A model generated the notes under the pieces. The model searched no databases. It was given only the letters and a program-made list of their open reading frames with translations, and had not been told where the DNA came from. DNA of 325 bases from Escherichia coli (lineage in GTDB: Bacteria > Pseudomonadota > Gammaproteobacteria > Enterobacterales > Enterobacteriaceae): assembly GCF_003334385.1 (NCBI RefSeq), contig NZ_QOWN01000204.1; one strand, 5' to 3'. Below are positions 88-218 of the stretch, piece by piece; the stretch's first letter is position 1; each line of letters begins with the position of its first letter. Both the position numbers and the translations under genes were made by a program.

Positions 88-120
88 GCAAATGTTAACT
101 GCTGCCTGGTTAACATTTGC
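88..120. promoter_or_regulatory. Site I: perfect 12-bp inverted repeat GCAAATGTTAAC-(9 bp TGCTGCCTG)-GTTAACATTTGC; candidate binding site for a dimeric DNA-binding protein
   Basis: Direct reading: 88-99 gcaaatgttaac is the exact reverse complement of 109-120 gttaacatttgc. The symmetry stops at the next base pair outward (c87 vs t121). Each arm contains one copy of the GTTAACAT motif. Function is inferred from architecture only. Confidence 0.55.
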
Positions 121-126
121 TGAAAA

Positions 127-142
127 AGCCAGTTAACATTTT
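127..142 (+). promoter_or_regulatory. Site II: solo copy of the motif (AGCCAGTTAACATTTT), no inverted partner within 20 bp
   Basis: 127-139 agccagttaacat is identical to 195-207 (13 bp). 132-141 gttaacattt is identical to 109-118 in the right arm of site I. It lies 23 bp (GTTAAC centre to centre) downstream of that arm. Confidence 0.45.
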
Positions 143-187
143 TTCCGCACAACAAACTGAATAATAAAGATAAAAACCGCAAAAATG
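139..187. promoter_or_regulatory. AT-rich spacer (about 29% GC) with A/T tracts between sites II and III; possible promoter, intrinsic bend or unwinding element (unresolved)
   Basis: 14 G/C in 49 bp by direct count. T6 at 139-144, AAA at 154-156 and 166-168, A5 at 172-176 and 181-185. Weak -10-like hexamers: AATAAT at 160-165 on plus, TATTAT on minus (166-161). No -35 partner at 16-18 bp spacing on either strand. Confidence 0.3.
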
Positions 188-218
188 CCCGGGCAGCCAG
201 TTAACATGTTAACTGCCC
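186..218. promoter_or_regulatory. Site III: composite dyad - 10-bp palindrome TGCCCGGGCA (186-195), GC clamp GGGCAG (191-196) / CTGCCC (213-218), and 18-bp perfect palindrome CAGTTAACATGTTAACTG (198-215) made of two overlapping head-to-head motif copies
   Basis: Direct reading: 198-215 equals its own reverse complement. 191-196 is the reverse complement of 213-218. 186-195 equals its own reverse complement. The two GTTAAC hexamers (200-205, 208-213) are 8 bp apart centre to centre. Confidence 0.6.

Follow-up and report, generated by a model that had tools for sequence, protein, structure and literature searches.

Known packaging sites and their relation to the locus

In phage lambda, the R sites of cosB lie between cosN and Nu1, where the subsite (R3-I1-R2-R1) is bound by gpNu1. 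The pac sites of SPP1 and SF6 comprise several short repeated boxes in bent DNA around the cleavage site, with G1P acting on the pacL/pacR boxes, and packaging proceeds by the headful mode from pac without defined ends. The small terminase (TerS) of HK97 binds positions +15 to +29 counted from the cos cut (Chechik et al., 2024, PMC11331095). The present analysis concerns a stretch of Escherichia coli DNA of 325 nucleotides, referred to in its full length as the window, in which five copies of GTTAACAT most probably form a cosB-like, terminase-anchoring subsite of cos in lambdoid Stx-type E. coli prophages (estimated probability about 0.78).

The likeness to lambda cosB extends to several features of layout, since in both cases short repeated elements in mixed orientation lie between the nick and the small terminase gene at the end that is packaged first, span about 130 bp and are divided by an A/T-rich segment into proximal and distal sites. 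The small terminase gene begins about 190–230 bp from the end in both (Nu1 at 191 in lambda, terS at +230 here), and the specificity that lambda owes to the N-terminal helix-turn-helix (HTH) domain of its small terminase would reside in the same part of the protein here. However, TerS of the present group is of the Terminase_2/SF6 type and not a gpNu1 winged helix, the ends carry 10-nt 3' overhangs and involve an accessory HNH endonuclease whereas lambda has 12-nt 5' overhangs, and the GTTAACAT motif is presumably unrelated to the lambda R-site sequences. A search for the IHF consensus WATCAANNNNTTR with up to one mismatch gave no match, which leaves a lambda-like I1 unsupported. Homology to lambda cosB proper was rejected on the grounds that Terminase_2 is the sole Pfam match of the protein and that an IHF site is missing.

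With HK97 the locus shares the gene order HNH endonuclease, cos, terS and terL, the 10-nt 3' cohesive ends and the placement of a TerS site a few tens of base pairs inside the left end beside an A-tract. In HK97, however, TerS belongs to another family and reads a single 15-bp site through an arm at its N-terminus and a helix at its C-terminus, and the left-end sequence is unrelated, whereas five predicted HTH-type sites extend over 128 bp here. A TerS of the HK97 gp1 type with an HK97-like left end was discarded as a model for the locus, HK97 and phiE125 both being unrelated to it in sequence. The SPP1/SF6 system has the same TerS DNA-binding fold (best match 4zc3/2cmp) but lacks the defined cohesive ends and the HNH partner of the family that carries the array. 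A headful pac site was likewise rejected, since the relative Lys8385Vzw has been assigned to the cos phages with 3' cohesive ends and since the termini of nine contigs coincide at a single base. The kind of element is familiar, while for this phage group it is apparently undescribed; a search of the openly searchable literature returned no description of the repeats.

Genomic context of the array

The window is 100% identical to chromosomal E. coli prophage DNA and is present in 1277 of 5426 complete genomes, with up to seven occurrences per genome. It is also 97–99% identical to 90 phage records, mainly of Stx1a-, Stx2a- and Stx2c-converting phages, together with BP-4795, 2851, 1717 and YYZ-2008. 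In every annotated case it corresponds to the reverse strand of the 289 bp that separate an HNH endonuclease gene from terS, the latter being followed by terL and then by the head genes, and annotation as well as PHROG matches place the HNH endonuclease upstream and terS-terL downstream of cos, in the HK97-type module order. The features of the window are collected in Table 1.

Table 1. Features of the window, with positions given in the window and, where available, relative to the left end of the packaged DNA
Feature	Window positions	Strand	Position from left end	Basis or remark
terS 5' end, GTG start 17-15	1-17	-	starts +230	annotation
terS Shine-Dalgarno GGAGGAGG	20-27	-	+220..+227	4 nt upstream of annotated GTG; seen in sequence
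Inverted repeat of copies 1 and 2, GCAAATGTTAAC-N9-GTTAACATTTGC	88-120		+127..+159	
GTTAACAT copy 1	92-99	-		
GTTAACAT copy 2	109-116	+		
Copy 3 with flanks, CAGTTAACATTT	130-141	+	+106..+117	
GTTAACAT copy 3	132-139	+		
A/T-rich spacer with T-tracts, CATTTTTGCGGTTTTTATCTTTATTATT on phage strand	142-197			seen in sequence
Proximal site, perfect 18-bp palindrome CAGTTAACATGTTAACTG	198-215		+32..+49	overlapping copies 4 and 5
GTTAACAT copy 4	200-207	+		
GTTAACAT copy 5	206-213	-		
Conserved left-end core CTCACGCAGAGAAAAAATTCCC, with A-tract	225-246	-		E. coli to Proteus, Pantoea and Burkholderia-type phages, any TerS type
cosN, 10-nt 3' overhang CGCGCCCCCT (phage strand)	247-256	-		homology to Lys8385Vzw cos and contig ends
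C8 run (G8 on phage strand)	291-298		45-52 bp left of nick	seen here and upstream in distant relatives
HNH endonuclease gene 3' end	307-325	-		stop TAA = complement of 307-309; RefSeq annotation of 100%-identical locus L001, translation, PHROG HNH matches

A sequence-only reading of the window had suggested that the repeats serve a DNA-binding protein encoded just outside it and had proposed inspection of the flanking genes. These turned out to be the HNH endonuclease and the small terminase with its predicted HTH domain, both adjoining the array, so that the expected neighbour is likely terS, the start of which is, however, already inside the window. The same reading had named dispersal of the motif over many unrelated loci and location within a conserved coding sequence as findings that would speak against a binding-site array. 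The array lies outside any coding sequence, and where it occurs several times in a genome this is merely due to several related prophages.

It had further offered operator clusters, partition centromeres, iterons and recombination accessory sites as possible classes, and dense short repeats in mixed orientation are typical of such elements. All four classes are nevertheless extremely unlikely at this locus, since no ParA/ParB, Rep, recombinase or repressor gene is found within 12 kb, and since in a related phage the O replication gene (about 17 kb) and the integrase gene (about 25 kb) as well as CI/Cro (17–25 kb) are far from the array, which itself lies 32 bp from the physical genome end among packaging genes. 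Nor does an operator cluster have a usable promoter or a repressor at hand, the neighbours being HNH and terS; a scan for promoters and terminators gave a single weak match resembling a promoter, not on the strand of the genes, and no terminator. The context is that of a phage cos packaging site, a class absent from the earlier list.

Some carriers of the array are probably defective prophages. In the exact-match prophage L001 the portal gene (1-1583) is annotated as frameshifted, and in L083 the terS reading frame is apparently disrupted, as inferred from ORF calls, while the array is intact. In addition, a direct repeat, CCTCCCGGGTC at 23-33 and CCCCCCGGGTC at 293-303, flanks the entire intergenic region, for which a rough estimate gives about 0.4 pairs expected by chance, so that it may mean nothing.

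Composition of the repeat array

Between positions 92 and 213 the window holds exactly five copies of GTTAACAT, compared with 0 copies in 200 dinucleotide-preserving shuffles, which bears out the dense five-copy array of the sequence-only reading; its figure of about 0.01 copies expected by chance agrees with the arithmetic (2 x 318 / 65536). The copies at 92-99 and 206-213 lie on the minus strand and the other three on the plus strand, in line with the two orientations reported there. The flanks described as conserved in all copies are so on the 3' side, where K-T occurs in five of five (TT in three, GT in two), but not on the 5' side, where CA is found in four of five and the copy at 109 has TG. 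Instead of three spacings there are four, the start-to-start distances being 17, 23, 68 and 6.

Copies 1 and 2 form a 12-bp inverted repeat (88-99 and 109-120) whose arms match perfectly and are 9 bp apart, and copies 3 and 4 have 16 bases in common. Measured between hexamer centres, the spacing is 8, 68, 23 and 15 bp, without helical phasing and with mixed orientations, which counts against an array of TerS sites. In 50 kb of phage Stx2a_1447, all five occurrences of GTTAACAT fall within the array and none elsewhere, while the bare GTTAAC hexamer occurs 16 times, five of them in the array. The restriction of the motif to this locus is established, and the repeated elements are, as in a cosB, confined to the cos region.

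Only short open reading frames cross the repeat region. Three of them on the minus strand (207-133, 139-110 and 116-81) start at the ATG of copies and encode MLTGCPGIFAVFIFIIQFVVRKKC, MLTGFFSKC and MLTRQQLTFAA, respectively; all open with Met-Leu-Thr, as TerS does, and the first two end at a TAA within the next copy. They are probably relics of an ancestral terS start and not genes.

The cohesive end and the left-end core

Phage Lys8385Vzw was analysed after induction with PhageTerm and reported as a cos phage that has 3' cohesive ends, its cos sequence CGCCCCCCCT being at the right end (Zhang et al., PMC7946995). Its TerS is 95% identical to that of the window, and its record ends at the right with GGACACCGCCCCCCCT, the last bases being CGCCCCCCCT, and starts with CTCACGCAGAG / CTCACGCAGAGAAAAAATTCCC. 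Where this record has its ends, the window reads CGCGCCCCCT directly joined to CTCACGCAGAG, and the cohesive end can therefore be placed at 247-256, with the left end starting at 246 and running towards position 1. Independently of this, ten loci, located on nine viral contigs of metagenomic origin within the wider family, terminate exactly at the homologous C of CTCA..., which corresponds to position 246 and is the first packaged base (L135/L243, L173, L196, L228, L229, L233, L238, L282 and L294); contig termini at a single base are as would be expected of a physical DNA end. The nick accordingly falls between 247 and 246, and the array adjoins it on the terS side with sites from +32 to +159, as a cosB does. 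The position of the array with respect to the DNA end and the genes is established.

Other anchors for the nick were considered and rejected. The cos of Burkholderia phage phiE125 has been mapped experimentally as CGCCCGCTTC (PMC2920897); left end and TerS both differ from those of the window, and it does not belong to the same cos family. In the case of HK97, both the left end and gp1 are unrelated in sequence. The records of Burkholderia vB_ phages start at arbitrary points and are uninformative on ends.

The spacer between the proximal palindrome and the distal copies is possibly intrinsically bent. To the left of the nick, a run of 7–9 G on the phage strand at about 45–55 bp is kept across the superfamily, including phages with another TerS (L005, L089-L101, L223-L300), and is possibly a cosQ-like or nuclease-positioning element. 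In L005, L089-L091, L093 and L099, GTAAACAT or GTTAACCT is also present on this side at about -33 from the nick, which recalls lambda R4; the homologous bases of the window, GTAAAAAA (272-279, complement), are degenerate.

The small terminase

The terS product, WP_000958372.1, has 187 aa and a full-length match to PHROG 641 (small terminase), and its residues 2-57 match Pfam Terminase_2 (E=2e-8) with no other Pfam match. A profile built from 14 TerS homologues matches the DNA-binding domains of the SF6, PaP3/NV1-type and Pam5 small terminases (E 0.005–0.02; five structures). In an AlphaFold2 model, residues 4-56 form a four-helix domain (pLDDT about 95 for residues 1-50), for which the closest structure found by Foldseek is the DNA-binding domain of the SF6 small terminase (4zc3, TM 0.83, rmsd 1.6 A, 30% identity). 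Beyond this domain, the protein continues with a disordered linker and ends in a C-terminal domain that is helical. By its predicted structure, TerS carries an HTH DNA-binding domain at the N-terminus, and this fold can be regarded as established.

Conservation of the sites and concerted change with TerS

In a set of 61 distinct close relatives taken from IMG/VR, variation affects 0 of 38 core positions, compared with 57 of the 191 other positions in +1..+229 (Fisher p=6e-6), a test of limited power, as the entire region is highly conserved among close relatives. In an E. coli variant of 87% identity, the five cores are intact in spite of many changes between the sites.

A second allelic class, referred to as type II, is found in E. 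coli prophages and comprises L338-L341 plus the decayed L310; L338-L341 were retrieved by a more sensitive search, megablast with the L310 array having returned its own genome alone. The layout is that of the window, with a palindrome, a spacer and three distal copies, and with terS at +223 to +225, while the non-core identity to the window is 53%. All type II sites read RTAAACAT, that is, position 3 of the hexamer is changed from T to A in five of five and position 1 from G to A in three. Within this class, too, the cores are invariant, with 0 of 38 core positions varying as opposed to 67 of 194 non-core positions (p=6e-7). These comparisons establish that the cores are under purifying selection.

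Alternatively, the terS 5' end might have been duplicated repeatedly, with the copies (each reading ATG TTA AC, Met-Leu-Thr, on the phage strand) left over as neutral and now functionless remnants. The palindrome shares homology with the ancestral terS start, the region of copies 1 and 2 resembles the first 32 nt of terS of relatives (p about 0.02–0.07), and the short Met-Leu-Thr-initiated reading frames begin at three copies. Such an explanation is very unlikely as an account of the present array, however, since the cores are invariant and the flanks vary in two independent classes, since the same T-to-A change is found in all five sites between the classes, and since the similarity past the core is marginal; duplication may account for the origin of the sites, not for their maintenance.

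The change of the sites is accompanied by a change in the protein. TerS of type II and of the window are 78% identical overall with a nearly unchanged C-terminal domain, and of eight differences in the N-terminal domain seven fall on residues 19, 22, 24, 25, 30, 32 and 35, in the predicted HTH helices 2 and 3. L310 departs from this pairing, since next to a type II array it has an HTH that bears K17E and otherwise resembles type I, the class of the window; its terS is truncated and an IS1 remnant is nearby. Scanning IMG/VR for the type II palindrome gave 27 matches, of which 0 had a cos core nearby and which were taken as chance. Judged from these sequences, the site sequence co-varies with the DNA-binding module of TerS, with the caveats that the sites are linked to terS and that L310 departs from the pattern; the co-variation as such is established. 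The array proposed earlier for one DNA-binding protein in non-coding DNA is thus supported insofar as the motif is restricted to the locus, its cores are invariant and it changes in concert with the HTH, while the class of element differs from those envisaged.

Single sites, independent arrays and an exchanged module in relatives

Enterobacterales relatives with a TerS of 37–54% identity retain the left-end core CTCACGCRCAGAAAAAATTCCCC and have one site only, GT(A/T)AAACATGTTAAC, the second half of which is the terS start ATG TTA ACA. The palindrome of the window is homologous to this single site, and about 190 bp containing the other three copies now separate it from the GTG start. In L113 and L216 the start codon is GTG, yet both hexamers are perfect (GTTAACGTGTTAAC), which indicates that the hexamers and not the ATG are the conserved feature. 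Most relatives get by with a single site, and the three distal copies are hence not essential to the family.

The arrangement in relatives raises the question of an autoregulatory terS operator, through which TerS or another protein would mainly regulate how terS and the head genes are translated or transcribed and would not direct packaging. In most of them, the single palindromic site covers the spacer between Shine-Dalgarno sequence and ATG together with the terS start codon, and a bound protein would occlude initiation. In the lineage of the window, by contrast, the sites lie 75–198 bp upstream of the GTG start and Shine-Dalgarno sequence, no credible promoter is found on the gene strand, and the position of the site is fixed with respect to the DNA end (+32..+49) even where the start codon has moved. 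An operator in place of a packaging site is therefore improbable for the window; an operator role could coexist with one in packaging and is plausible for the relatives with a site over the start codon.

A number of further HTH lineages with a terS beginning ATG..CTG ACA have GTTAA-core arrays of their own at the same place. These consist of two GTTAACCC, one GTAAACCC and GGTAACC in L098/L189, of two GTTAAC, GTTAAT and ATTAAC in L141, of three ATGTTAAAG and GTTAAC in L283/L288, and of three copies in L293. By comparison of these sequences, GTTAA-core arrays have expanded independently in several HTH lineages.

In a further group, referred to here as arm-type phages, the left-end core is the same and the C-terminal half of TerS is homologous (45–56% identity; PHROG 641 positions 79-158), while an Arg/Gly-rich N-terminal arm (MAGVKGRSGGARPGAGRKPK) replaces the HTH. 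In the non-coding DNA from the end to the start codon, 37 of 46 HTH lineages have GTWAA as opposed to 2 of 20 arm-type lineages, and 0 of 46 have WTCAAA as opposed to 18 of 20. These counts must be taken with caution and as support, not proof, of the binding-site reading, since they are phylogenetically non-independent and since the site is physically linked to the terS 5' end, which it abuts or overlaps; with ATG-TTA-AC encoding Met-Leu-Thr, linkage may explain part of the association between motif and TerS type. One to three copies of WTCAAA(T)GG, the last overlapping the ATG, lie upstream of terS in L223-L241, L261, L262, L289, L294 and L302, and this motif appears to be another recognition element, unrelated to the first, that serves the same packaging machinery.

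The sites might instead be bound by a factor other than TerS, be it the HNH endonuclease, TerL or a nucleoid protein of the host, or they might function at the RNA level as hairpins of the late transcript. Action at cos is required of HNH and TerL as well, and hairpin formation is conceivable for the two inverted repeats (88-120 and 198-215). Yet the type of site follows the N-terminal module of TerS, and within it the HTH substitutions, while the cos core and the TerS C-terminal domain are constant; moreover, the RNA fold of +1..+229 is no better than that of shuffles (z=-0.96), and there is no Rfam family, with a sub-threshold miRNA match only, and no IHF consensus. Both variants are quite improbable on this evidence.

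Proposed mechanism and implications

If the array is the terminase-anchoring subsite of cos, the N-terminal HTH domains of an oligomeric TerS would bind the GTTAAC-core sites, in a stoichiometry that we can only infer. The proximal palindrome would place TerL and the HNH endonuclease for the 10-nt staggered cut 32 bp away. The three distal sites, beyond the A/T-rich and probably bent spacer, may raise affinity and specificity, and the DNA is perhaps wrapped round the TerS ring through them; the bend, the part played by the distal sites and the extent to which they are needed are to be read as proposals, as is TerS as the binding protein. Packaging would then proceed from the left end into terS and the head genes.

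A more speculative and rather doubtful extension is that the array constitutes a packaging-specificity code that co-evolves with the TerS HTH. The matched alleles, of which lambdoid prophages of E. coli have at least two (GTTAACAT with an AKTARV helix, RTAAACAT with an EKSARC helix), might then stop co-resident prophages or satellites from cross-packaging, and the five sites might have arisen from the single start-codon site by duplication of the terS 5' end, parting recognition from translation initiation.

Of complete E. coli genomes, roughly one in four contains prophages with the array, and many of these prophages carry Stx1/Stx2. As an element directing packaging, the array would define the DNA that can be mobilised, and a replicon with the roughly 260 bp of cos core and sites might be transduced. 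Contig ends provide a handy locator of cos ends in uncultivated phages of the same family, packaging specificity could be typed by telling type I from type II arrays, and the matched variants of protein and sites lend themselves, as a natural system, to work on DNA recognition by a small terminase of the SF6 type in a cos phage. The findings leave the general view of cos packaging as it was; of most interest are the matched alleles of site and HTH and the expansion from a start-codon site to a five-site array.
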